Shown here: in pieces, positions 27,008 to 45,018 of the stretch | How positions within the stretch are numbered: the stretch's first letter is position 1 | How the letters are laid out: every line of letters begins with the position of its first letter | Assembly: GCA_012797975.1 (NCBI GenBank) | Contig: JAAZOD010000022.1 | Location: forward strand, 22,797 to 86,796 | Source of the DNA: Pelolinea sp. | GTDB taxonomy: Bacteria > Chloroflexota > Anaerolineae > Anaerolineales > Anaerolineaceae | DNA length: 64,000 bases | Reading direction: 5' to 3' | The notes under the pieces: generated by a model | What the model was told of the DNA's origin: nothing | What the model saw: the letters and a program-made list of their open reading frames with translations, nothing else | Database searches by the model: none | Program-made: the position numbers and the translations under genes

Positions 27008-27874
27008 ATGAACAACAGGGTGTATTTCGGGGATAATCTGCCCGTCCTGCGTTCGTTTCCGGATGCGTTCGTGAACCTGATCTACATCGATCCGCCTTTC
27101 AACACCGGGCATACCCAAACGCGCACCCGCATTCGTACCATTTCCTCCGCACAGGGCGACCGCACCGGTTTCAAAGGCAAGCGCTATGAGACCATCCGGC
27201 TCAGCCGGAACGGTTATCAGGATCATTTCGATGATTATCTGGCTTTTTTGGAGCCGCGCCTGCGCGAAGCATACCGGGTTCTCAAACCGGATGGGTCGCT
27301 GTATTTCCATATTGATTACCGCGAGGTGCACTACTGCAAGGTCCTGCTGGATGAGATCTTTGGACGCGATTCTTTCATCAACGAGATCATCTGGGCCTAT
27401 GACTACGGTGCGCGCACGCAGAAGCGCTGGCCGCCCAAACACGACAATATCCTGTGGTACGCCAAAGACCCGGCGCACTACACGTTCAATTACGATGCCA
27501 TCGACCGCATCCCCTATATGGCGCCCGGGCTGGTGGGCAAAGAAAAAGCCGCGCGCGGTAAACTGCCCACCGATACCTGGTGGCATACCATCGTCCCCAC
27601 CAACAGCCATGAAAAGACCGGCTATCCCACCCAGAAACCGCTCGGCATCATCCAGCGCATCATCACCGCCAGTTCCGATCCGGGAGATTTGGTGCTGGAT
27701 TTCTTTGCCGGCAGCGGCACGGTGGGGGAGGCTTGTATTAAATTGAACCGCAATTTTGTTCTGATCGATGACAATCCCCAGGCGTTGCAGGTGATGCGGC
27801 AGCGTCTGCAAGGTGATCCTTCCATCGAATGGTTGGAAGGAACGGATGTTCAGGGTTCTTCGCATGCTTCCTGA
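27008..27874 (+). CDS. beta-class DNA methyltransferase (N6-adenine or N4-cytosine), no adjacent restriction enzyme recognised
   Basis: Motif IV NLIYIDPPFNTG lies N-terminal and motif I LDFFAGSGTVGEA lies C-terminal, which is the beta permutation (PF01555-like). The ATG is 1 nt after the LysE stop. Confidence 0.85.
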   Translation: MNNRVYFGDNLPVLRSFPDAFVNLIYIDPPFNTGHTQTRTRIRTISSAQGDRTGFKGKRYETIRLSRNGYQDHFDDYLAFLEPRLREAYRVLKPDGSLYFHIDYREVHYCKVLLDEIFGRDSFINEIIWAYDYGARTQKRWPPKHDNILWYAKDPAHYTFNYDAIDRIPYMAPGLVGKEKAARGKLPTDTWWHTIVPTNSHEKTGYPTQKPLGIIQRIITASSDPGDLVLDFFAGSGTVGEACIKLNRNFVLIDDNPQALQVMRQRLQGDPSIEWLEGTDVQGSSHAS

Positions 27875-28704: not shown

Positions 28705-30807
28705 TTACTGAAGCGGCTGGACTTTTTCCAGCAGCAGCGCCTGAACGATCGACGGCAGAGCGTTCTTCACGATGCCCATCTGCCAGTTAGGCAGGAAGTT
28801 TTGCTTGATGGGGGTGGGCGGCGTCAATTCCAGAATGGGTTTTCCGCCGTTGTAGAGCATTGCGGCGTTCTCGATCAGTTGGGCATTGGCTTCATATTTT
28901 TGCAGCCCGCCGATCACGATCGCGTCGCGGCGTGGAGTGGAATAAGTGCTCACCGCACTGGCAGAGACCAGACTGAACTGCAGAGGGGCCGTGGTCGGGT
29001 AGCGCAGGGTCATGGTCTGGTTGCCCATCGTCCAGGAACGGCCTTTCTGCACCAGTTCCACCTGCAGCCAGTTCAAGTAGTCATTGAATAGAACATCCTG
29101 GTCTGCTCCGAAAACGGTCAGGCAGCGCGAGAGGATGGCGTTGCGTAGCCAATCGAGCCGCAGGATGTCATCGTTGGGACGGATGGCGTTCCACATGGCC
29201 TGCAGCACGGAATGGACCGGGGTTTGTTCTTTCTCCGCCCACGTTACCAGCGCGCCCAGCAGGGCATTGTCCACAACTTCGTAGCGGTAGCGCCCAAAAC
29301 CGTTCACTGCCAGATGCACCTCGAACTGTTCTTCCTTGCGCGTGTTCCGTTGGAACGAGGAATAGAGCGGGTTGAGATTCAGATATTCCAGGATGATCTC
29401 ATCATAGGTCTTGCGATGGGCGGTGAGCGACTGCCAGAAGCCGCGCACCCCTTCACTCTCGGTATCGGTGCCCACGCCGGCCCACATGGCTCCGGGCACT
29501 CCTTGCTTTCCCTGATTGGTTCGTACTGCCAGGAACTCGGCCCGTTTCTCGGGGGTGCCCATGGCCAGCAGTTCGCCGATCACATCCCCCTGCATGTCCT
29601 CCGGTTTGATCACCTTGCAGGCGGTATCGGGGAAGGTGCAGATCCAGGCGCGGCGCAGGCGTGGTAGCAGGGCGGCCGCATGCGGCAGCTTGGCGGCTTC
29701 CAGCAATGCTTCATTGCAGAAACCGCGTTTGACGAGCAGCACGAAGAACCACGCTTCGCTGGTCTCATTGTTCCCTGTGCGCTGCATCAGTTCATTATAT
29801 TTGGTGGTGGTGCTCTCTGGCTTGGCGCTCAGGCCTGCCAGACTGGAAAGGATGAACGGCTGCAGATAAGGCGGTGTGTTTTTGACCAGATTTTCGGAAA
29901 AAGTGGGGGTGAAGATGACCAGCCCCTTGTTCTCCAGTTCCGCGCCGCTATTCAGCACAACGTGCATGAGGTTGAAACGATCCAGCCACACCTGGTCGAG
30001 CCAGGCGGCTTTCGCCAGAGTTTCCACCATCTCCGCGATCAGCCGGGCAAATAATCCCTCGCGTTCTTTTTGAATATGAAAAGCCAGCAGGCGTGTGTGC
30101 AGGCGCAGTTGTTCGCTGAGCTTGCCGCTGTTGGCTGGAACGCTCAATTGCGCCAGATTGCTGCGGATTTTCTTGGCTATCCGTTCGATCAGTGCATCAT
30201 CCAGTTGGATGGCTTGTCCTTCATCTGCCAGTATTTCAAGGATCAGAGTTTCCATCTTTGCTTCCCCCAGGATGGGAAGGAGGAAAGTCCATTCGGCAGG
30301 TTCCAGTTTGGTCGCTTGGTTGAGACGTTTCAGTATATCGCCCTGCAATTTGGCCGAAAGATTCTTCATCAATGGATAAGCCACTTTGCGATCGAGCGGC
30401 AGCCAGGCATCCACCAGCGCTTTCCACACCGGTCCTTTGCCGAGCGGGTTGAAGCGTTTTTTCAAACGCGCTTCGCAATCCTGCAGCTTCGCTTTCTTTT
30501 GGTTCACATCCTCCAGCTTTTTGATCTCTTCGATCTCCGCCAGCATTTCTGCGGCGAAACCCTTCTTTTCGCTGGGAACGGATTCCTCGAAGCCGGTGCG
30601 CAGTTCGGCCAGTTCCGCCTGATTTTCCTGCGGGATGGAACGCAGCAGCGGCTGCAGCATTTGCCAGTATTTTTCCGCCCGTTCGGGGGCGAAGGTGCTG
30701 CAAAACTGGCAGAGCTTCAGCAGGAAGAATGCTTTGGGCTGGTCCAGCAGCGCATTTCCTTCCAGGGTGCTGTCGACAATGTTGAATACGTGGTTCTCTT
30801 CGCTCAT
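28705..30807 (-). CDS. hypothetical 700-aa cytoplasmic, predominantly helical protein (no domain recognised)
   Basis: Long uninterrupted ORF with coding-like composition and GGAGGATACC upstream of the ATG. Terminators on both sides suggest it is monocistronic. Confidence 0.6.
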   Translation of the reverse strand: MSEENHVFNIVDSTLEGNALLDQPKAFFLLKLCQFCSTFAPERAEKYWQMLQPLLRSIPQENQAELAELRTGFEESVPSEKKGFAAEMLAEIEEIKKLEDVNQKKAKLQDCEARLKKRFNPLGKGPVWKALVDAWLPLDRKVAYPLMKNLSAKLQGDILKRLNQATKLEPAEWTFLLPILGEAKMETLILEILADEGQAIQLDDALIERIAKKIRSNLAQLSVPANSGKLSEQLRLHTRLLAFHIQKEREGLFARLIAEMVETLAKAAWLDQVWLDRFNLMHVVLNSGAELENKGLVIFTPTFSENLVKNTPPYLQPFILSSLAGLSAKPESTTTKYNELMQRTGNNETSEAWFFVLLVKRGFCNEALLEAAKLPHAAALLPRLRRAWICTFPDTACKVIKPEDMQGDVIGELLAMGTPEKRAEFLAVRTNQGKQGVPGAMWAGVGTDTESEGVRGFWQSLTAHRKTYDEIILEYLNLNPLYSSFQRNTRKEEQFEVHLAVNGFGRYRYEVVDNALLGALVTWAEKEQTPVHSVLQAMWNAIRPNDDILRLDWLRNAILSRCLTVFGADQDVLFNDYLNWLQVELVQKGRSWTMGNQTMTLRYPTTAPLQFSLVSASAVSTYSTPRRDAIVIGGLQKYEANAQLIENAAMLYNGGKPILELTPPTPIKQNFLPNWQMGIVKNALPSIVQALLLEKVQPLQ

Positions 30808-32027: not shown

Positions 32028-32696
32028 ATGCTCTATATCATCTCAACCCCCATCGGCAACCTCGGCGATATGACCCTGCGCGGGCTGGAAACGCTCAGGC
32101 AGGTCGATTACGTGGTCAGCGAAGATACCCGCAAGACCGGCCTGCTGCTCAAGCATTTCGAGATCAGCAAACCGCAGATCTCCTTTCACGCGTTCAACGA
32201 ACAAAAGACCCTGCCGCGCTTGATGAACCTGCTGAAGGAAGGCAAACATATCGGGCTGGTGAGTGATGCCGGCACCCCTGCCATCTCCGATCCCGGTTTT
32301 TCGCTGGTGCGGGCGGCCATCGAGCACAATATCCCGCTTACCGCTGTTCCCGGTCCCACCGCGCTCATCATGGCGCTGGTGCTTTCAGGGCTGGCGCTGC
32401 ATTCCTTCACCTTCCGCGGTTTCCCGCCGCGCAAGAGCGCCGCGCGCCGGCGTTTCATGGAGGTGGATAAGGATTCACCACATACCCTGGTTTTCTACGA
32501 GAGCCCCTACCGCCTGCTGGAATTTCTGGAGGATGCTATCGCAGTGTATGGTGATCGCAAGGCGGCGCTGGCCAACGATCTCACCAAAAAGTTCGAAACA
32601 GTATTGCGCGGATCGCTTTCGGAAATAAAACAGCAGCTTTCCGAAGAAAAGCTGCTGGGTGAATACACCATTGTCATTGCCGGGGCTGATTCATAA
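32028..32696 (+). CDS. rsmI: 16S rRNA (cytidine1402-2'-O)-methyltransferase
   Basis: [22 protein letters not shown]...VVSEDTR...[12 protein letters not shown], the tetrapyrrole-methylase-fold RsmI signature. Confidence 0.9.
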
Positions 32697-33413
32697 CGGG
32701 TTGAAGCGCGTGTCGCGGTCGTAATAATCCTCGTTCTCCGCTTTCTTCAATCCGTTCACGATGCGGTAGGTGAAGGGCGTAAAGAGCGCCTCGACCGCCA
32801 CTTTGAAGATGTAATTGGTCAGCACCAAACTGGTGAAGATCTCCCACGGAAAGACCCCGAACAAGCTGGCGATGAGGGTGAAGATCAGCGAATCGACCCC
32901 TTCGCCCACCAACGTGCTGGTGATGGTGCGCAGCCACAGGAATTTTCCTTCCGTTTTTACCTTCATCACCGCCATGACCACCGAATTGCTGTATTCCCCC
33001 AGAAAATAAGCTACCAGACTGGCGATCACCAGTCCGCCGCTGCTCATGCCCCCCAGCACGGCATCATACGCGGCCTGTCCGGTGTACTGCTGCCAGGCCG
33101 CCTCGCCCGGCAGAACGCGCACCAGGCTCAGGGTGAGCGCGCACAACGCCATGGCGCCGAACCCGGTCCAGATCACGCGCCGCGATTTTTTGAATCCGTA
33201 CACTTCCACCAGCACATCCCCGAAGATGTAGCTGATCGGGAAGAGCAACGTGCCGCCGTCGAAGGCCATGCGCACCCCGCCGATCGAGAATCCCCAATCC
33301 ACGATCTTGGCGGATGAGGCGATATTGCTGGTGATCAGCACGGTCACAAAGAGCGCCATCACCAGGTCGAAAAAGCGGTAGCTGCGTTTCGGTTCACTTT
33401 TCTGTTGCATCAC
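32691..33413 (-). CDS. yhhQ: queuosine-precursor (7-deazapurine) transporter, YhhQ/VUT family
   Basis: [25 protein letters not shown] and [14 protein letters not shown] blocks of DUF165/YhhQ. Confidence 0.85.
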
Positions 33414-33478
33414 GCGCTTAGTATAATGTATATTTAGTGCAGCGCAGTCTTCAATTCTGCCAGAAAGCCAGGAAATTC

Positions 33479-34234
33479 ATGCATCGTTTTTTTCTGCCTG
33501 CCGGGTGCATTGCCGGTGAAACCGTCACGTTTCCGGAGCCCATCGCCCACCAGATCCGCCATGTGCTGCGTTTAAAGGAAGGCATGCCGGTGCAGGTGCT
33601 GGATGGCGCGGGGACGCTACTGCAGGTGCGCCTGCAGGAAATTTCGGAGGAAGGTGTGCTTGGGCGGGTGATGGAGCGCAGCCGGCCGCAGGATGAGCCG
33701 GCGGTGAAGCTTGCGTTGTGCGTTTCGCTCACCCAGCGCGAGAAGTTCGAGTGGATACTCCAGAAAAATGTGGAGGTGGGCTCGGCCTGCGTGTTGCCCT
33801 TCATCTCACGCTATTCCCTGGCGCGGGAAAAGACGATCGAGGCCAAACGCCGCCAGCGCTGGGAAGATATCCTGCGCGAGGCTGCCGAACAGAGCGGGCG
33901 CATCCTGATCCCCACCCTGGGGGAAGTGTGCAACTTGCCGAAGCTGATCGCCTGCTGCGCGCAGGAGTACGACCTCTGCTTGGTCGCCTGGGAAGGGGAA
34001 CGCTCAACCACCCTGCAGAATGCACTGCAAACAGTGCAAAAGAAAGGGCGCGATGCCCATTCCATCGCCATCTTCATTGGCCCCGAGGGCGGTTTTGCCG
34101 CGCAGGAAATGGAAGTTTTCGAACAGGCAGGGGTGGTGCCGGTCTCGCTGGGCAAACGCATTTTGCGCATGGAAACTGCGGCCATTGTGGCGCCGGCGCT
34201 CATTTTATATGAATTGGGACAGATGGGGCTTTAA
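33479..34234 (+). CDS. rsmE: 16S rRNA (uracil1498-N3)-methyltransferase
   Basis: MHRFFLP...HVLRLKEG...QSGRILIPTL...IFIGPEGGF...LGKRILRMETA, typical of RsmE. I trimmed to the ATG at 33479. Confidence 0.85.
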   Translation: MHRFFLPAGCIAGETVTFPEPIAHQIRHVLRLKEGMPVQVLDGAGTLLQVRLQEISEEGVLGRVMERSRPQDEPAVKLALCVSLTQREKFEWILQKNVEVGSACVLPFISRYSLAREKTIEAKRRQRWEDILREAAEQSGRILIPTLGEVCNLPKLIACCAQEYDLCLVAWEGERSTTLQNALQTVQKKGRDAHSIAIFIGPEGGFAAQEMEVFEQAGVVPVSLGKRILRMETAAIVAPALILYELGQMGL

Positions 34235-35745
34235 TACAAACGCGTTGGCAGCAGATTCTTCAGGCGATCCTTGAGCGCCTTGGCACGTCCCAGCACTCTG
34301 CCGCTTTCATCTTTGACCAGCAGTGTTTCCCCCATCCAGTCCTTGCGGATGGAAATATCGAAAATGTCCTGTCTTCCCCAATAAGCTCGGCTCTGTTCTT
34401 CGTTCAAAACCACGCACCCTTGCTGGAATGAAATGCCAAAACGGGCTGCAAATTCATGGCTGATCTGGAATCCACCGGGAATGCGCTTGAAGGCGTTCAT
34501 CCCGTAGCTGGAGAAGGGCAGGCTGAAGAATTCACTGAAAAGCCGTTCCGGCGCCAGCAAAATGCCGTTTCCATTTTCCATCAGAAGGTCTTGCTGTTTT
34601 TGCAGCACGCTTTCCAGATCGAACCCGTACAGGTCCCGCATCCAGCCGCTCAGGGTTTGCTGATCTTTCGGAGAAAGCGGATTAGCCCGCTCTACCCTCT
34701 TCCCGGTCTGCGCCGGCTTGCCTCCCGTTTCGCTTGGGATGGAAGCCAGTTTGGTGAAACGCGCGCTGAAAAAGCCGGTCGTACCAAAAAGGTGCGGCCA
34801 CAGGCGTACCGCCCGCTGCATGGCTGGCGCAAAGCACTGGTTGCCGAACTGGTTCAGGGCGGGAGCGGGTTTCGGCAATCGGGCGGAACCGTCATCCAGC
34901 CGGATGCGGTCGCCGAATTCCTGCAGGGCGCGCTGCACCACCATTTCATCTTCCTCGGGTGAAAGTGTGCAGGTGGAATACACCACCTGCCCGCCGACCT
35001 TCACCGTTTGCAGGGCGCTGCGCAGCAGCAGGAACTGGCGGTTGCTCAAACTTTGTTGTTCCCCTGGGCTCACCGCGCGCAGCGGGTGCGAAGGGGTATC
35101 GTACAGATTCTGCATGCTACAGGGGGCGTCCAGCAGCACGATGTCGAAGGTTTCGGGAAGCTGGCTGCCGAAATACTCCCCGTGCAGGCAGGTGACTGCC
35201 TGGTTGATGGCGCCCCATTTGGCCAGCACCACGCGCAGGGCGGCGATGCGCCCGCTGCTGGCGTCGTTGGCGATCACCAGCCCACGGTCGGCGGTCTTGT
35301 CGATCAGATGGGTGGTCTTCCCGCCCGGCGATGCTGCCATATCCAGCACCAGCGGGGATGGTTGGCCGGAAAGATCGAAAAGCTCCACGGGCAGCATGGA
35401 CGCGCTTTCCTGAATGTAGTAATCTCCCAGCAGATGTTCGCTGGTCTTTGCGATGCTGCCGGCGGAAGCGTCGAGGTTCCATCCGCTGGGGCAGAAGGGT
35501 ACGGCAGAGAGCTGCCATCCGTAGCGTTGCTCCAGTTGATGGATGAAATCCTTCGGTTCATGCTTCAGCAGATTGATGCGGATGGCAGCCGGCAGTTCCT
35601 GATCCAGTGTTTCACATAATCGCTGGAAATCAGCGGCGCTCAACAGGGGGCGAAAATGTTCCAGCGCTGTGCTCACGGCGGAGGGAAGAGAAAGGAGTTC
35701 TGTCAAATCAGCCGGCTCCTTTCCGGATACAGAAGACGATCTCAT
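34231..35745 (-). CDS. RsmB/RsmF-family (NOL1/NOP2/Sun) RNA m5C methyltransferase, RsmF-like length
   Basis: LDMAASPGGKTTHL, IANDAS, LLDAPCS, VYSTCTLSPEEDE. The start is uncertain. Candidates are ATG 35745, or TTG 35706 with GGAG 9 nt upstream and 1 nt after the stop of the upstream gene. Confidence 0.8.
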   Translation of the reverse strand: MRSSSVSGKEPADLTELLSLPSAVSTALEHFRPLLSAADFQRLCETLDQELPAAIRINLLKHEPKDFIHQLEQRYGWQLSAVPFCPSGWNLDASAGSIAKTSEHLLGDYYIQESASMLPVELFDLSGQPSPLVLDMAASPGGKTTHLIDKTADRGLVIANDASSGRIAALRVVLAKWGAINQAVTCLHGEYFGSQLPETFDIVLLDAPCSMQNLYDTPSHPLRAVSPGEQQSLSNRQFLLLRSALQTVKVGGQVVYSTCTLSPEEDEMVVQRALQEFGDRIRLDDGSARLPKPAPALNQFGNQCFAPAMQRAVRLWPHLFGTTGFFSARFTKLASIPSETGGKPAQTGKRVERANPLSPKDQQTLSGWMRDLYGFDLESVLQKQQDLLMENGNGILLAPERLFSEFFSLPFSSYGMNAFKRIPGGFQISHEFAARFGISFQQGCVVLNEEQSRAYWGRQDIFDISIRKDWMGETLLVKDESGRVLGRAKALKDRLKNLLPTRLY

Positions 35746-36511
35746 CTTCAAATATGATCTCTTCCACAGGCCATGTTCTGCCCTGCAGGGCATCCTGCAC
35801 CAGATGGCGCATGCGTTCGCTCAGGTCGTGTGTTTTGCCGATATCACGCTTGGGCAGCGAGACCAGCAGGGTGGTCACCGGCAGCGCATCCCATAGAATG
35901 CGGTTGCTGCCTTTGCGGCGCTGATCCATGCGGTGCGCTTCCTTGAAGAAGAAAGCCGTATCCGCTTTTTGCGTGGGCGGTGATACCAGAATGTCGCGCT
36001 GTTCGGCGCGTGCGGCTTCGAAACCTGCCCTCCGGAAAAAGGCGTTCAACAGGTTCACCCGCGGTTGGTGGATGTCATAGGCCAGATAGGTGATGTTTTG
36101 ATCCAGCCCCATTTTGGGCAGGGCAAACGGGTTCAATCCGCAGGCCAGGTCCAGAATGCTCTGGGGGGTGCCGATACGTTGAAAGAGAGCGTTGTAAAAA
36201 TCGGTCAAATAGGGCAAGCGTTCGCGGGTGGAGGTGTGCGCGCTGAGCATGCGGTTGGCAAAATCCTGCAATTCCCTTTCATCTTGCATGAGTTCAAGCT
36301 CTTCCAGTGCTTTGTCATAGTCGGGGTCGCCCAGATAAAGGGCGGTGAGCTGATGTAGTTTCTGGCGCACACTTTCCTGCATGCTCTTTTCATCGCGGAA
36401 GCGCTGGCTTTCCTGTTCGATCAGATCACGGATCGTTTCAGCGGGCAGATGCAGATCGCGGTACTTGCGCGAACGCAGCACCTTCTGGATGAATTCCTCG
36501 TTGGATGACAT
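35708..36511 (-). CDS. divergent ArmA/Rmt (FmrO-family) 16S rRNA methyltransferase paralogue B
   Basis: KVLRSRKYRDL, KLHQL, HTSTRERLPYLTDFYNALF, SILDLACGLNP are conserved. The C-terminal blocks diverge (FFFKEAHRMDQ, VSLPKRDIGKTHD). I trimmed the track ORF (to 36916) to the ATG at 36511, which is 2 nt after the stop of paralogue A. Confidence 0.7.
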   Translation of the reverse strand: MSSNEEFIQKVLRSRKYRDLHLPAETIRDLIEQESQRFRDEKSMQESVRQKLHQLTALYLGDPDYDKALEELELMQDERELQDFANRMLSAHTSTRERLPYLTDFYNALFQRIGTPQSILDLACGLNPFALPKMGLDQNITYLAYDIHQPRVNLLNAFFRRAGFEAARAEQRDILVSPPTQKADTAFFFKEAHRMDQRRKGSNRILWDALPVTTLLVSLPKRDIGKTHDLSERMRHLVQDALQGRTWPVEEIIFEDEIVFCIRKGAG

Positions 36512-36513
36512 GG

Positions 36514-37326
36514 CTATTTCCTTTTCACCCGATAGACCAGCTCGCTGGCGAACAGGAATTTTTGGTGATCCCAGCCCAGTTCTGCCGTTAATCCTTCGAA
36601 TTGCTGGGAATAGTGGGCCAGCATGCCTTTCTCTTTCCCGCCGATGCTGTGCACCGGAAAACTGACCAGCAGCCAATCCGCAGAAATGCCGCTCAGAATG
36701 CGCCGGGCGCTGTCTTTGTCCGCCTGTTCCAGGCAGGGCAGGGTTTTCAACAGCAGTGCCACCTGAGCATGTTCCTGGGGAAGTTGGCGCAGCAGATTGC
36801 AGGTGCCGGCTTTGCCGCGGATGGCAAAATGGCCGAAAAAGCTTTGCAGAAAAACTGTCATGTCCTGAAAGATATCGCAGGCGCTGTAGCTCGCTCCTTT
36901 TTCCAGCGCCATCCAATCCAGCCCCAGTGGGTTGAATCCGCAGGCTAGATCGAGGATGGAGTTCACCGGCCGGATATCCTCGAACAGGGTGCGGTAAAAA
37001 TCAGCCAGGATGGGTAACCGTTCGCGGGTGGAGGAATGTTCTTGCATCAGCCGGCTGCAAAAAGCCCGGCTTTCGGCAGCGTGGATATCGGCAGGCAGGG
37101 TTTCCAGTTCTTGCATGTGGGCGGCGTACTGCGGCTGCTGGGGGAAATAAGCCCAGCCCACCTGATGCAGTTTGTTGGTGGTGGCTTTGACTGTCTCTTC
37201 GAGGGAAGCGCGCTTTTTGATTTCTGAGTTGGCGATGAAAGCCACCAGGTCGGGGTCGAGATGCTGGTACTTTTTTTTTGCCAGCACCTGCCGGATGACC
37301 TCGCCGACTGTGAAGGGGCCGCTCAT
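36514..37326 (-). CDS. ArmA/Rmt-type (FmrO-family) 16S rRNA (guanine1405-N7)-methyltransferase homologue, paralogue A
   Basis: It matches ArmA/RmtB block for block as I remember them: LAKKKYQHLDPDLV, NKLHQVGWAYF, HSSTRERLPILADFYRTLF, SILDLACGFNPLGL, LLLKTLPCLEQAD, VSFPVHSIGGKEKGM, ELVYRV. Its ATG overlaps the TGT stop (ATGA). Confidence 0.85.
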   Translation of the reverse strand: MSGPFTVGEVIRQVLAKKKYQHLDPDLVAFIANSEIKKRASLEETVKATTNKLHQVGWAYFPQQPQYAAHMQELETLPADIHAAESRAFCSRLMQEHSSTRERLPILADFYRTLFEDIRPVNSILDLACGFNPLGLDWMALEKGASYSACDIFQDMTVFLQSFFGHFAIRGKAGTCNLLRQLPQEHAQVALLLKTLPCLEQADKDSARRILSGISADWLLVSFPVHSIGGKEKGMLAHYSQQFEGLTAELGWDHQKFLFASELVYRVKRK

Positions 37327-38408
37327 GCCGCTTCTCCGCGTAACTGGCGGATGATGTGTGCCATGAAAGAGAGGTTGTGGATGGTCGCCAGACGCGCGAA
37401 CAGGGTTTCGTTGATCTGGTGCAGATGATGGATGTAACTCATGCTGTAGTGCTGGCAGGTGGGACAGGGGCAGGTGGGGTCGATGGGTTGTGTATCGCGC
37501 ATGTGCTTTTCGTCTTGCGCATAGATGTAGTCCAGCCAGTCCAGGGAGCGGGTGTTGAACTCTCCGCGCAGCCGGTACAGCCGGCCGTGACGTGCATCGC
37601 GGGTGGGCATGGCGCAGTCAAAAAGCCGGTAGCCAAACTGAAAGGTCCTCACCAGATTATAAGGATGCCCGATGCCCAGCGCGTGCATAGGGAATTGGGT
37701 GGGGATCAATTCGCGCGTGTAGCCCACCATCTCTTCCACCAGATTGCCATCTTTATCCAGCGGCCAGCCGCCATATCCATAACCGTCAAAACCGATCTCC
37801 AGCAGGGCGCTGGCGCAGGTTTCACGATGCTGGCGGGAACCGCCGCCCTGTACCACGGCAAACAGCTTGCGCTGGCGATCCGCATCGTTTTGTGTGTTTT
37901 CCATCAGACGCTGAAATTCCTGTTTGCAGCGGCTTGCCCAATGCACGGTGCGTTGCACCGATAGCACCTGTTCACTGTCCGCGTCGTCCACATGTGTGCA
38001 ATCATCCAGGCAGAACAACACATCCGCGCCCATCTTCCATTGGATCTGTATGCTTTTTTCAGGGGTGAGCGTGATTTTCTTTCCGTGAGCGGTATTTTTC
38101 AAATGGATGCCATCATCCGAGAAGCTACCAAAGCCGCTGTTCTGGCGGATGAGGGAGTACGCTTGAAAACCGCCCGAATCGGTGAAAATGGGACCCTGCC
38201 AGCCGCTGAAGGCATGCAAGCCGCCCAGCGCGCTGATCACAGTGGTACCGGGTTTTTGCATCAGGTGGTAGGAATTCATCATGACGGCCTGCACACCGCA
38301 AGCCGCCAGGTCCTGTGCGTCCAATCCGCGCACTTGCCCGAAAGTGGCATCGGGCAAAAAAGCGGGCAGGGGGATCACTCCGTGGGAGGTCGAAAAAAGC
38401 GTATCCAT
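37323..38408 (-). CDS. TGT-family (tRNA-guanine transglycosylase-like) enzyme with a non-canonical base-selectivity segment
   Basis: Conserved blocks: IFTDSGGFQ, LDDC, LFAVVQGG, LFDCAMPTRDARHG, and the zinc site CPCPTCQHYSMSYIHH. Divergent blocks: FLPDAT where bacterial Tgt has FMPVGT, and GYGGWPLDKDG where it has GGLAVGEP. Confidence 0.85.
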   Translation of the reverse strand: MDTLFSTSHGVIPLPAFLPDATFGQVRGLDAQDLAACGVQAVMMNSYHLMQKPGTTVISALGGLHAFSGWQGPIFTDSGGFQAYSLIRQNSGFGSFSDDGIHLKNTAHGKKITLTPEKSIQIQWKMGADVLFCLDDCTHVDDADSEQVLSVQRTVHWASRCKQEFQRLMENTQNDADRQRKLFAVVQGGGSRQHRETCASALLEIGFDGYGYGGWPLDKDGNLVEEMVGYTRELIPTQFPMHALGIGHPYNLVRTFQFGYRLFDCAMPTRDARHGRLYRLRGEFNTRSLDWLDYIYAQDEKHMRDTQPIDPTCPCPTCQHYSMSYIHHLHQINETLFARLATIHNLSFMAHIIRQLRGEAA

Positions 38409-38456: not shown

Positions 38457-39374
38457 TTAATGCAATACGCTCAATGCGTGCAGGGTTACCCATGTGTCCA
38501 CCGTATCCTGCCCGGCGGTAAAGGACCAGGTACGCTTGCGGGCTGGGCTGGCTCCCCGCCACATGCCGCTCAAGGAGCGTTTTCCGCGCAGCCAGTTCAG
38601 TGCCTGGAGGGCAGAGGGATGGTGAAGTGCGTCCAGTTCGTCCAGCACGCGCAGGGTGAAAAGGATATCCGTGCTGTAAAAGAGCGGAAAGTTCAGCGAG
38701 AACCAGCAGCGATGGATCTGTTCCTGATACGGGTAATCGGCCTTGAGCAGAGAATAGCGCTCCAGCAGGAATTCTAGACCATGCCGGATGGCATGCTCCA
38801 CCTGCGCAGAGCGTTTTTCAACCGGAATGGCAGCCAATCCCCACATCGCGCGGATCAAACCCCAGGCGCAGGGCAGTCCGTAATTCCAGTCGCAACGGGC
38901 ATCAACTTCGACCTCGCGCACCTGCAGGCAAATGGTCTCTTGAAGGATGGGGTCTTCCAGCGCGCCGCAATGGATTTGATAGCGGGCGAAGTTCCCCCAA
39001 AAGCAGATCAATCCCCTTTCGTCATTCTCGATCTGTTCATGCAGACTTTGCTGCATGCGTTTGCGCATATAGGCCGCCCCTTGCTGCATGGCTGGATGGT
39101 CGCCCGACAGGCCCAGTTCGGTCAATAATTGCATGCTCCAGTGCGTGGCTTTATATTTTGGTGTATAGTGGCTGCGTTCCCACACCCAGTACCCTTCGGG
39201 ATGCTGTTCTTTGAGGATGGAGCATACCGGTTCCTGTTCTGCCAGCAGAATTTGCTGTTGCAGAACCAGGGGATCGTCCGGTGATAATCCTTTCAGTTTT
39301 AATAAAGTGAACAGGCGGATCGAAGGTGTATCCGCCTGTTCCAATGTCTGGATCAATTCTTCACGAGTTTGCAT
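38457..39374 (-). CDS. hypothetical helical-repeat protein (possibly alpha/alpha-toroid, prenyltransferase-like)
   Basis: 305 aa starting at the ATG at 39374 (AAAGGGGAAAC upstream). Trp/Gly-rich helical repeats are present. The fold assignment is a guess. The track extension to 39806 overlaps the next gene and I rejected it. Confidence 0.5.
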   Translation of the reverse strand: MQTREELIQTLEQADTPSIRLFTLLKLKGLSPDDPLVLQQQILLAEQEPVCSILKEQHPEGYWVWERSHYTPKYKATHWSMQLLTELGLSGDHPAMQQGAAYMRKRMQQSLHEQIENDERGLICFWGNFARYQIHCGALEDPILQETICLQVREVEVDARCDWNYGLPCAWGLIRAMWGLAAIPVEKRSAQVEHAIRHGLEFLLERYSLLKADYPYQEQIHRCWFSLNFPLFYSTDILFTLRVLDELDALHHPSALQALNWLRGKRSLSGMWRGASPARKRTWSFTAGQDTVDTWVTLHALSVLH

Positions 39375-44216: not shown

Positions 44217-44318
44217 AACAAAACGAAAAGGCAAACTCGGCGAAAGCCGGGGACGCAAAGCCATGGGTCTACCGGTGGAAACACCTACGACTGCCAGGTT
44301 GCCGAAAGTGGAATCATG
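44217..44318 (+). promoter_or_regulatory. c-di-GMP-I (GEMM-I) riboswitch aptamer
   Basis: AAAGGCAAAC-UCGGC-GAAA-GCCGG-GGACGCAAAGCC-AUGGGUCU...GGUG-GAAA-CACC...GACUGCCAGGUUGCCGAAAG. This reproduces the conserved GCAAAC / GNRA hairpin / GGACGCAAAGCC / ..GGUUxCCGA core of GEMM-I (compare Vc2 as remembered). Confidence 0.8.
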
Positions 44319-44325
44319 AGTTCCG

Positions 44326-44358
44326 GCAGCTGGCATTTTGCCAGCTGTTTTCGTTTTG
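44326..44358 (+). terminator. riboswitch expression-platform terminator
   Basis: CAGCTGGC (44327-44334) pairs with GCCAGCTG (44340-44347), then TTTTCGTTTT. The left arm CTGGCA can alternatively pair with TGCCAG (44292-44297) in the aptamer 3' part. Confidence 0.7.
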
Positions 44359-44388
44359 AAAACAAACGAAAGGAGACGATATACTCAA

Positions 44389-45018
44389 ATGAAAAGGATC
44401 ACAACGGTCGTCTTGGCAATTTTACTGTTGATCGGCTTCACCAAACCGGTGTTTGCAGAAGGGGAGCCGGAACCTACGCTGGAACCGACCGTGGAACCGG
44501 AGGAAGAACAGGAGAAATTGAATCCGGTTGTCCGGTGGATCGCAGATTTTTTCAAAGATCTCTTCCTGGTTGAAACACCACAGGAGCCGGTTGAAACCAC
44601 GACCCCCGAAACAACCCCTGAAACGGATGAAACGCCGGTGCCTACCGAGGAAGTGCCCACTCCGCAGCTTACGTTGAGTGTGGAAGAGCAAATTGCTGCC
44701 TATCATGAGGATGAGCTGGGTTTTGGCGTGCTGGTGAAACTCTTGAGCATCGCCGAAGCCGCCAAAGCGGAATGCACTGCAACCGGTGTTAATTGTGATG
44801 TGACCATTGATACGCTGGTTGAACAGTTCAAAGCCGGTGTGGGTATTGGTGACTTGGAGGCACTCTATGGGAAACCGGATGTCTCGGGTGTGGGCCAGGT
44901 CAAAGGTACGCCGGAGCCGGAACAGAATCAGAACAGAGTGCAAAACGAGAACAGGAACACCAATCAGAAAAATTTGCAGAACGAGCATAAAACGGAAAAT
45001 AAGAACAAGAATAAATAA
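44389..45018 (+). CDS. small secreted low-complexity protein (209 aa)
   Basis: AAGGAGA SD 12 nt upstream. Signal peptide MKRITTVVLAILLLIGFTKPVFA/EG, an E/P/T-rich region, a roughly 70-aa ordered core with 2 Cys, and an N/Q/K-rich tail. I rejected the track start 44338 because it lies inside the terminator. Confidence 0.6.
   Translation: MKRITTVVLAILLLIGFTKPVFAEGEPEPTLEPTVEPEEEQEKLNPVVRWIADFFKDLFLVETPQEPVETTTPETTPETDETPVPTEEVPTPQLTLSVEEQIAAYHEDELGFGVLVKLLSIAEAAKAECTATGVNCDVTIDTLVEQFKAGVGIGDLEALYGKPDVSGVGQVKGTPEPEQNQNRVQNENRNTNQKNLQNEHKTENKNKNK

Follow-up and report, generated by a model that had tools for sequence, protein, structure and literature searches.

FmrO-family methyltransferase paralogues in a conserved RNA-modification gene cluster of Anaerolineae

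Methylation of G1405 in 16S rRNA to 7-methylguanosine (m7G1405) has been described as a mark of actinomycete producers and of plasmids (MMBR 2026 review). What, then, would two adjacent genes of the FmrO methyltransferase family do among the RNA-modification genes of an uncultured Anaerolineaceae bacterium? The question is raised by 64,000 nucleotides of a Pelolinea sp. contig (JAAZOD010000022.1; hereafter the window, meaning this whole stretch), in which two genes, here called A and B, lie between tgt, for a tRNA-guanine transglycosylase (Tgt), and an rsmF-like 16S rRNA methyltransferase gene. A first-pass annotation of the sequence had related the pair to the ArmA/Rmt enzymes and had offered three options for B, namely a different target nucleotide, a non-catalytic partnership, or decay. 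We consider it moderately likely that the locus is a vertically inherited housekeeping operon, in which A is the m7G1405 enzyme and B is an active methyltransferase with a different target nearby. This reading draws directly on the family membership and fold of the proteins, on their conserved residues, on purifying selection, and on synteny and clade structure.

Family membership and residue conservation of A and B

An open reading frame (ORF) check gave products of 270 amino acids for A and 267 for B on the minus strand, and the annotated coordinates of the two adjacent genes proved exact (Table 1). The TAG stop codon of A (36516-36514) is followed by cc and then by the ATG start codon of B (36511-36509). 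All motifs that had been listed are present in the translations: KKYQHLDPDLV, KLHQ, HSSTRERL, DFYRTLF, SILDLACGFNP, LLKTLPCLEQ, VSFPVHSIGGKEKGM and ELVY in A, and the replaced blocks FFFKEAHRMDQ and VSLPKRDIGKTHD in B. Assignment to the FmrO family was confirmed by a hidden Markov model (HMM) search with Pfam PF07091, in which A scored 153.6 bits (E 8e-45, profile positions 3-254 of 255) and B 140.2 bits (E 1e-40, positions 1-253 of 255) against a cutoff of 27. The two proteins are 32% identical to each other (E 1e-36), and each is alignable over its full length to the m7G1405 enzymes Sgm, RmtB, RmtF and RmtC in the Protein Data Bank (PDB). The top PDB match of A is Sgm (6e-43, over Sgm residues 17-280), which scores 233 bits with an HMM of the A family; the individual Rmt models give A and B 41-118 bits. 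An AlphaFold2 model of B (predicted local distance difference test score 91.7, predicted template modelling score 0.88) retrieved RmtC, RmtB, Sgm and RmtF as its best Foldseek matches, over 263-284 columns and with template modelling scores of 0.76-0.81. The three-part fold of the family, consisting of the N1 and N2 helical subdomains and a class I S-adenosylmethionine (SAM) methyltransferase domain, is assigned to B from this model and to A from the alignment to Sgm.

Residues of RmtC with roles known from mutagenesis and from cryo-electron microscopy of the 30S-RmtC complex were mapped onto the A and B families (PMC10054953; bioRxiv 10.1101/712810). K20, Y21, H54, Y60 and K204 are essential docking or catalytic residues of RmtC; Y60 is used for stacking, R111 and D160 are SAM ligands, and K204 contacts N7 of G1405 (PMC10054953). 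R241 and M245 are also essential (PMC10054953), and the helix-44 pincer loop spans RmtC residues 237-246. Both families keep K20, Y21, H54, Y60 and K204 at 89-100%, and R111 and D160 are conserved at 100% in A and B alike. In the A family, P207 and M245 are also at 100%, G239 is kept, and position 241 is Arg in 73% and Lys in 17%. The window's own A retains the equivalents of K20, Y21, H54, Y60, R111, D160, K204, Pro207, G239, K/R241 and M245.

The B family has His at position 207 and Arg at position 212 (100% each), and its pincer loop is shorter by one residue. Position 241 is not conserved (Thr, Gln or Arg), and position 245 is Leu in 65%, Met in 23% and Lys in 9%. Invariant residues specific to B are found in YLGDPDY after the KLH motif, in FKEAHRxEQR after the catalytic lysine and in GxH in the loop, and they are clustered around the predicted active site. 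At motif III, Asp occurs in all 121 members of the B family, and the A family has 86 Asp and 35 Asn. This residue pattern indicates that B is a putatively active enzyme with redesigned target-gripping elements, and not a dead one.

We consider that A probably makes m7G1405 constitutively. Its N-terminal domain would dock on the 30S subunit, and G1405 of helix 44 would be flipped out and methylated at N7, as by the Sgm and Rmt enzymes; constitutive resistance to 4,6-disubstituted aminoglycosides would follow as a by-product. With its cofactor site, catalytic lysine, stacking tyrosine and docking residues intact, B is predicted to be an active SAM-dependent methyltransferase, in which the β4-β5 loop with the invariant His and Arg and the helix-44 pincer loop seem to have been rebuilt. 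Since these loops are changed, B would most likely modify a different nucleotide or atom in the same 30S region, near 1400-1410 or 1490-1500, in concert with RsmF. The chances seem evenly balanced that B docks like its relatives and modifies another nucleotide or atom nearby, and among the three options for B a different target nucleotide appears to be the best supported. The substrates and products proposed here are predicted from sequence, structural modelling and comparative genomics.

Selection, synteny and the B-like clade

Ratios of nonsynonymous to synonymous substitution rates (dN/dS) were calculated by the Nei-Gojobori method between the window genes and four relatives. They are 0.12-0.17 for A, 0.14-0.24 for B and 0.14-0.26 for rsmF and rsmE. 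Among the columns conserved in at least 90% of 120 homologues, the window's B matches 72 of 72 and A 63 of 64, and the mean identity within the family is 0.51 for B and 0.49 for A. Since the dN/dS of B is on par with that of its neighbours and all conserved columns are matched, B is, judged from its substitutions, not decaying; the relaxed selection expected of a decaying copy was looked for and did not appear.

The closest relatives of the A and B proteins come from metagenome-assembled genomes (MAGs) of Anaerolineaceae and Chloroflexota, and the same locus is found on a Joint Genome Institute (JGI) metagenome contig, with proteins 97-99% identical. Relatives at 47-75% identity retain the order tgt-A-B-rsmF on chromosome-sized contigs, in most cases with rsmE, yhhQ and rsmI after it. 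In a scan of one genome per GTDB species, B-type genes were present in 399 species genomes. The best 80 of these, among them the cultured Longilinea arvoryzae KOME-1, Ornatilinea apprima P3M-1 and Leptolinea sp. HRD-7, are Anaerolineaceae or Chloroflexota by their record titles, except for one bin labelled Anaerovoracaceae. This Firmicutes bin (L037, CAVCBG010000064.1) carries an Anaerolineae-type A-B-rsmF block at about 48% identity, which is probably a binning error and not gene transfer.

In 84 B loci, A lies at most 150 nt upstream of B in 67 and farther upstream in 7, and is not found within at least 3 kb in 7; in 83 of the 84 the next gene after B is rsmF, at a median distance of 14 nt. 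The median gap is 17 nt from the A stop to the B start (74 loci) and -4 nt from the Tgt stop to the A start (69 related loci), and rsmE is syntenic in most related loci. One locus has tgt-A without B, and seven have B-rsmF without A in at least 3 kb upstream. Since tgt-A and B-rsmF are found separately, the operon seems to have been built from these two modules. The conserved links between A and a divergent tgt and between B and rsmF extend beyond the first-pass annotation. A single ORF joining A and B in one related locus (L027) was dismissed as artificial, since a run of N separates the two genes.

Every characterised family member has a role in resistance or self-resistance, and an acquired resistance island or a producer self-resistance locus would follow this precedent. 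However, no transposase, integrase or aminoglycoside-biosynthesis gene is present within about 10 kb of the pair, in agreement with the first-pass annotation. The genes within this distance are for RNA modification and ordinary metabolism, the guanine-plus-cytosine content of the pair is continuous with that of the flanks, and synteny is kept across hundreds of species. The recurrence of the gene order in distant relatives upholds the view of an intrinsic chromosomal pair in a housekeeping context. We regard acquisition, producer self-resistance or decay of a duplicated B as extremely improbable, and as refuted as far as sequence analysis reaches.

In E. coli, acquired enzymes for G1405 or A1408 hinder RsmF (C1407) or RsmI (C1402) at a fitness cost (PMC3923132). 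These two enzymes, which are disturbed in E. coli, are here inherited together with the FmrO genes, a pattern suggestive of mutual adaptation. B may be encoded with RsmF so that neighbouring marks are laid in a compatible order. Within the Anaerolineae, the one phenotypic record found concerns the isolate Thermomarinilinea SW7, for which neither kanamycin nor streptomycin is effective at 50 ug/ml (PMC4070665); such insensitivity is uninformative for a strict anaerobe.

The tandem genes, their tight spacing and the adjacency of rsmF to B might also reflect a non-catalytic B that serves as a partner or regulator of A or RsmF, like the inactive subunits of some two-subunit RNA methyltransferases. 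Conservation of motif I, R111, D160, the motif III Asp and K204 is, however, unexpected for an inactive subunit. Moreover, the Tgt-A and B-RsmF modules are separate in some genomes, and in PDB 8GHU the 30S subunit is bound by one RmtC chain. We consider a non-catalytic B very improbable indeed, and this option is disfavoured by SAM-binding and catalytic residues conserved at 100%.

A profile search of 1.84 billion cluster representatives recovered 1823 FmrO-like clusters. About 55 of the best 150 are B-like and fall into two flavours, FKEAHR and FKMYHC, the latter of which is present in genomes of Cytophagales (Bacteroidota). In a neighbour-joining tree, Anaerolineae B and the B-like sequences form one clade (198 of 200 bootstraps), and Anaerolineae A, the Cytophagales A-like protein, Sgm, RmtB, RmtF and RmtC are on the opposite side. 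His193 and Arg198 are present in all 30 members of the B-like clade; none of the 16 sequences on the other side has His193, and Arg198 is not one of the residues common there. The B-like clade contains no characterised enzyme. RmtC had been considered as a B-like member because of its FKLYT motif and a slightly higher score with the B HMM, and was ruled out by support in 0-4 of 200 bootstraps. A first tree of A, B and the four references had given three clades and, being unrooted, does not allow a sister relationship of A and B to be read from it.

Two Cytophagales contigs (L090 6001-9368 and L091 6001-9368) have the order B-like gene, rsmI, tgt of the GGWP type described below, and A-like gene, with tgt overlapping the A-like gene. 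On another contig (L092 5095-6819), rsmH (16S m4C1402; TIGR00006, 292 bits) is directly upstream of a B-like gene. B-like genes thus adjoin rsmF, rsmI or rsmH in three arrangements. Since all of these encode C1402 or C1407 methyltransferases, their company points to the top of helix 44 as the field of action of B.

Several observations weigh against the assignment of A to m7G1405 and of B to a different target. With the NCBIfam Rmt equivalog model NF000466, A (213.1 bits) and B (181.4 bits) are both below the cutoff of 250, so that the proteins are safely filed under "FmrO family" and not under "Rmt"; the ArmA/Rmt kinship proposed in the first-pass annotation stands as full-length alignment to Sgm, RmtB, RmtF and RmtC, and falls short of this equivalog. 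In Cytophagales, the A-like protein scores 254.2, above the same cutoff, and the B-like protein 201.3. The window's A has Asn at the motif III Asp, as do 35 of the 121 A-family members, and His at the position of RmtC K236. RmtC itself has Thr, not Pro, at position 207, and in the FKMYHC flavour of B-like proteins the loop is as long as in RmtC and has a basic residue near 241 and Ile or Leu near 245. The case for a different target of B comes from the changed loops alone, and G1405 could still be the target of a B-like enzyme. The trees were built by simple neighbour joining and have no root. The tight coupling of A to Tgt across phyla, described below, is unexplained by a model of independent enzymes in one operon. 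Finally, Chloroflexi homologues are on record only as "uncharacterized homologs" in a tree (bioRxiv 10.1101/712810, 2019); in the literature on 16S methyltransferases of Chloroflexi, Anaerolineae or Chloroflexota, this RmtC preprint was the only source found to mention homologues.

Some of these points would fit a B that also makes m7G1405, as an isoenzyme for a different substrate state, e.g., an assembly intermediate in which helix 44 is unpacked and the pincer loop is unneeded. Lys204, Tyr60, His54 and the residues for SAM binding are all present in B, an RmtC-like loop persists in some B-like relatives, and the absence of Pro207 is shared with RmtC, a proven G1405 enzyme. On the other hand, two enzymes with the same product are not expected to persist in one operon in two phyla, nor would a separate set of invariant residues in each paralogue be expected. 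The Anaerolineae B family does not conserve R241 and M245, two residues that RmtC requires (PMC10054953). We consider the isoenzyme unlikely and prefer a different target for B, another nucleotide or atom close to the top of helix 44.

The divergent Tgt coupled to A

The tgt gene upstream of A encodes a divergent enzyme. In the alignment with E. coli Tgt, GGWPLDK replaces GGLAVGE, and TDSGGFQ, FDCAMPTRDAR and CPCPTC are kept. The subfamily has GGWP(L/I)D for GGLAVGE and PDAT for PVGT, with the catalytic Asp motifs retained. The window Tgt is just over the TIGR00430 cutoff of 306.75 (Table 1), yet lacks the canonical pocket motif GGL(A/S)VGE. The Cytophagales Tgt, which is 48% identical to it, also has GGWP and, at 294.2, scores below this cutoff. 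An apparent loss of the zinc site in one Cytophagales Tgt (L090 7499-8578, CDSHT-S, compared with CDCHTC in L091) was set aside as a probable local sequence error in L090.

Every one of the 68 Tgt proteins of Anaerolineae loci carries GGWP. A metagenome scan seeded with the GGWP Tgt alone gave 80 loci, 71 of them with at least 900 nt downstream. The motif is present in 79 of the 80. In 68 of the 71, tgt is immediately followed by an FmrO gene (median gap -1 nt), which in most cases encodes Pro207 and the Met loop. The gene directly upstream of tgt is rsmI in 15 of 62 loci. One MAG (GCA_048633415.1, L173 5001-6887) carries a single ORF of 628 amino acids, preceded by rsmI, in which a GGWP TGT is fused to an A-like FmrO protein. 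The fusion is known from one assembly and could be a frameshift artefact at the ATGA overlap. A DpdA-like defence function of Tgt was also considered and rejected, as no PADLOC defence model matched the Tgt or FmrO proteins. In the literature library searched, no report was found that links FmrO with a transglycosylase or queuosine.

The A-type and Tgt enzymes have guanine position 7 as their common ground, in N7 methylation and in 7-deaza base exchange, respectively. This overlap may be a coincidence, a co-regulation of decoding fidelity, or a sign of a shared pathway. In a shared pathway, A and the GGWP Tgt, perhaps with B, would act on the same guanine to produce a new hypermodified nucleotide in rRNA or tRNA. 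N7 methylation by A would make a good leaving group, and Tgt would recognise or exchange the base, possibly for a salvaged 7-deazaguanine precursor. Consistent with such a route are the distinct subfamily beside A, whose motifs are altered while the catalytic Asp motifs are kept, the almost invariable FmrO gene after tgt in the metagenome loci, the tgt-A adjacency in Cytophagales, the Tgt-FmrO fusion in one MAG, and the queuosine-precursor transporters (YhhQ or QueT) in the cluster. In canonical Tgt, the backbone NH of Leu231-Ala232 contacts the N7 side of the base. The Trp-Pro pair would remove this NH and add an aromatic ring able to stack on the cationic m7G.

However, the window Tgt passes TIGR00430 and may simply be the only tRNA Q34 enzyme of the lineage, and A keeps all residues that RmtC uses for 30S docking. 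G1405 is located in a C-G-U context, whereas canonical Tgt needs U-G-U, and the fusion, from its single assembly, may be a frameshift error. We consider the shared pathway quite unlikely. Its boldest form would be a two-step base-exchange machine of FmrO-A and the GGWP Tgt, which produces a hypermodified base in the decoding centre or at a new tRNA position, with B and RsmF adding nearby marks; the clinical m7G1405 enzymes would then be escaped parts of an ancient RNA base-exchange pathway. To this form we assign a decidedly low probability. We retain the reading of a housekeeping operon with a G1405 enzyme (A) and a second methyltransferase (B) of different target.

The gene cluster and known systems

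The packed block and its neighbours are listed in Table 1. The cluster brings together genes for modification of 16S C1402, C1407 and U1498 and of the tRNA wobble base with the two FmrO genes. Shine-Dalgarno-like GGAG, AAGGA and AAGGAG lie 7, 7 and 9 nt 5' of the A, B and rsmF starts, respectively, all of them within the preceding genes. From this spacing and these positions, the genes tgt-A-B-rsmF are probably co-transcribed and translationally coupled. In a scan of 31.5-41.5 kb for consensus promoters and terminators, match counts equalled those in shuffled sequence, and the operon boundaries were not resolved.

Table 1. Features of the packed gene block and its neighbours in the window
Feature	Coordinates	Strand	Basis
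tgt, GGWP-type divergent tRNA-guanine transglycosylase, heads the packed block	37323..38408	-	Pfam TGT 319 bits; TIGR00430 317.2
ATGA overlap of tgt stop and fmrO-A start	37323..37326	-	sequence reading
fmrO-A (A), canonical-type FmrO methyltransferase, probable 16S rRNA m7G1405 enzyme	36514..37326	-	PF07091, Sgm match, RmtC residues
TAG-cc-ATG junction of A and B, AAGGA 7 nt 5' of ATG	36509..36516	-	sequence reading
fmrO-B (B), "His-type" FmrO clade, predicted SAM-competent, remodelled RNA-gripping loops	35708..36511	-	PF07091, AlphaFold2, conservation
rsmF-like 16S rRNA m5C methyltransferase (C1407 family)	34231..35706	-	Pfam RsmF_N + RsmB-F; NF008898
rsmE (16S rRNA m3U1498 methyltransferase family), convergent with rsmF	33437..34234	+	Pfam Methyltrans_RNA; TIGR00046 147.8 bits vs cutoff 41
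Queuosine-precursor transporter (YhhQ / Vut_1 family)	32691..33413	-	Pfam Vut_1; TIGR00697 110.5 bits vs cutoff 50.95
rsmI (16S rRNA Cm1402 2'-O-methyltransferase)	32028..32696	+	Pfam TP_methylase; TIGR00096 229.5 bits vs cutoff 167.9

The rsmF-like gene has RsmF NF008898 as its top NCBIfam match, with 256 bits, which is under the cutoff of that model. Its start may be TTG 35706, in frame and one base past the TGA of B, or ATG 35745. Both are likelier than the start of the longest ORF (ATG 35793), which would overlap B by 86 nt, and gene callers disagree on this start among relatives (L001 compared with L086). The rsmF-like and rsmE genes are convergent, and their stop codons overlap by 4 nt (34231-34234). 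In one related locus (L087 8895-9368), a QueT-family transporter gene takes the place of YhhQ (Vut_1) at the same position of the cluster.

Farther out, two proteins, of 305 amino acids (38457-39374, minus strand) and 700 amino acids (28705-30807, minus strand), are without a Pfam or NCBIfam match, yet their genes are syntenic with the operon in distant relatives (L001, L086, L174). An N6/N4 DNA methylase gene (27008-27874, plus strand; PF01555, 180 bits) has a similar gene at the edge of one related locus (L174), and the ORFs examined include no obvious restriction partner for it. A c-di-GMP-I riboswitch (Rfam RF01051, 88 bits; 44220-44306, plus strand) is located just 5' of an ORF of 226 amino acids (44338-45018) that has no Pfam match.

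The locus suggests a housekeeping role for the FmrO family across a class of strict anaerobes, on which aminoglycosides exert hardly any selection. The resistance genes for 16S rRNA methyltransferases may have a natural reservoir here, and their fitness cost a natural solution. The locus also defines an uncharacterised FmrO clade of the His193/Arg198 type, which probably writes an unknown mark in the decoding centre. The coupling of FmrO to a divergent Tgt, which spans at least two phyla and in one case takes the form of a fusion, is explained by no current model. The two paralogous lineages, the tgt/rsmF operon, the His/Arg clade signature and the Tgt coupling were not found in the literature library searched, in which Chloroflexi homologues are already on record. 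The presence of the operon in cultured strains opens it to direct testing.

Among known systems, Sgm, GrmA and KgmB of actinomycete producers (PDB 3LCU/3LCV) resemble A in the LLKTLPCLE and SLGxRxKGM motifs and in domain order. However, these producer genes lie in or near aminoglycoside clusters and confer self-resistance, whereas A is one of a pair in an apparently vertically inherited RNA-modification operon. ArmA and RmtA-H (RmtB 3FRH, RmtF 6PI9, RmtC 6PQB/8GHU) share the docking, SAM-binding and catalytic residues with A and B, as well as the fold in the model of B. Unlike A and B, they are plasmid- or transposon-borne single genes of Gram-negative pathogens, and B differs from them in the lack of a conserved pincer R241 and M245 and in His for Pro/Thr207. 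The Chloroflexi homologues in the 2019 preprint (bioRxiv 10.1101/712810), which that paper only places in a tree, are presumably the same proteins or close relatives. RsmF, RsmI, RsmH and RsmE act, as the FmrO enzymes here would, on the same small 16S region, and their genes are clustered in this locus or stand beside B-like genes elsewhere, but they belong to unrelated folds and families. Finally, the Tgt enzymes of E. coli and Zymomonas mobilis share the TIM-barrel TGT domain, the catalytic Asp motifs and the zinc site with the window Tgt. The canonical enzymes have GGLAVGE where the window type has GGWPLDK, and the window type nearly always precedes an FmrO gene and is once fused to it.

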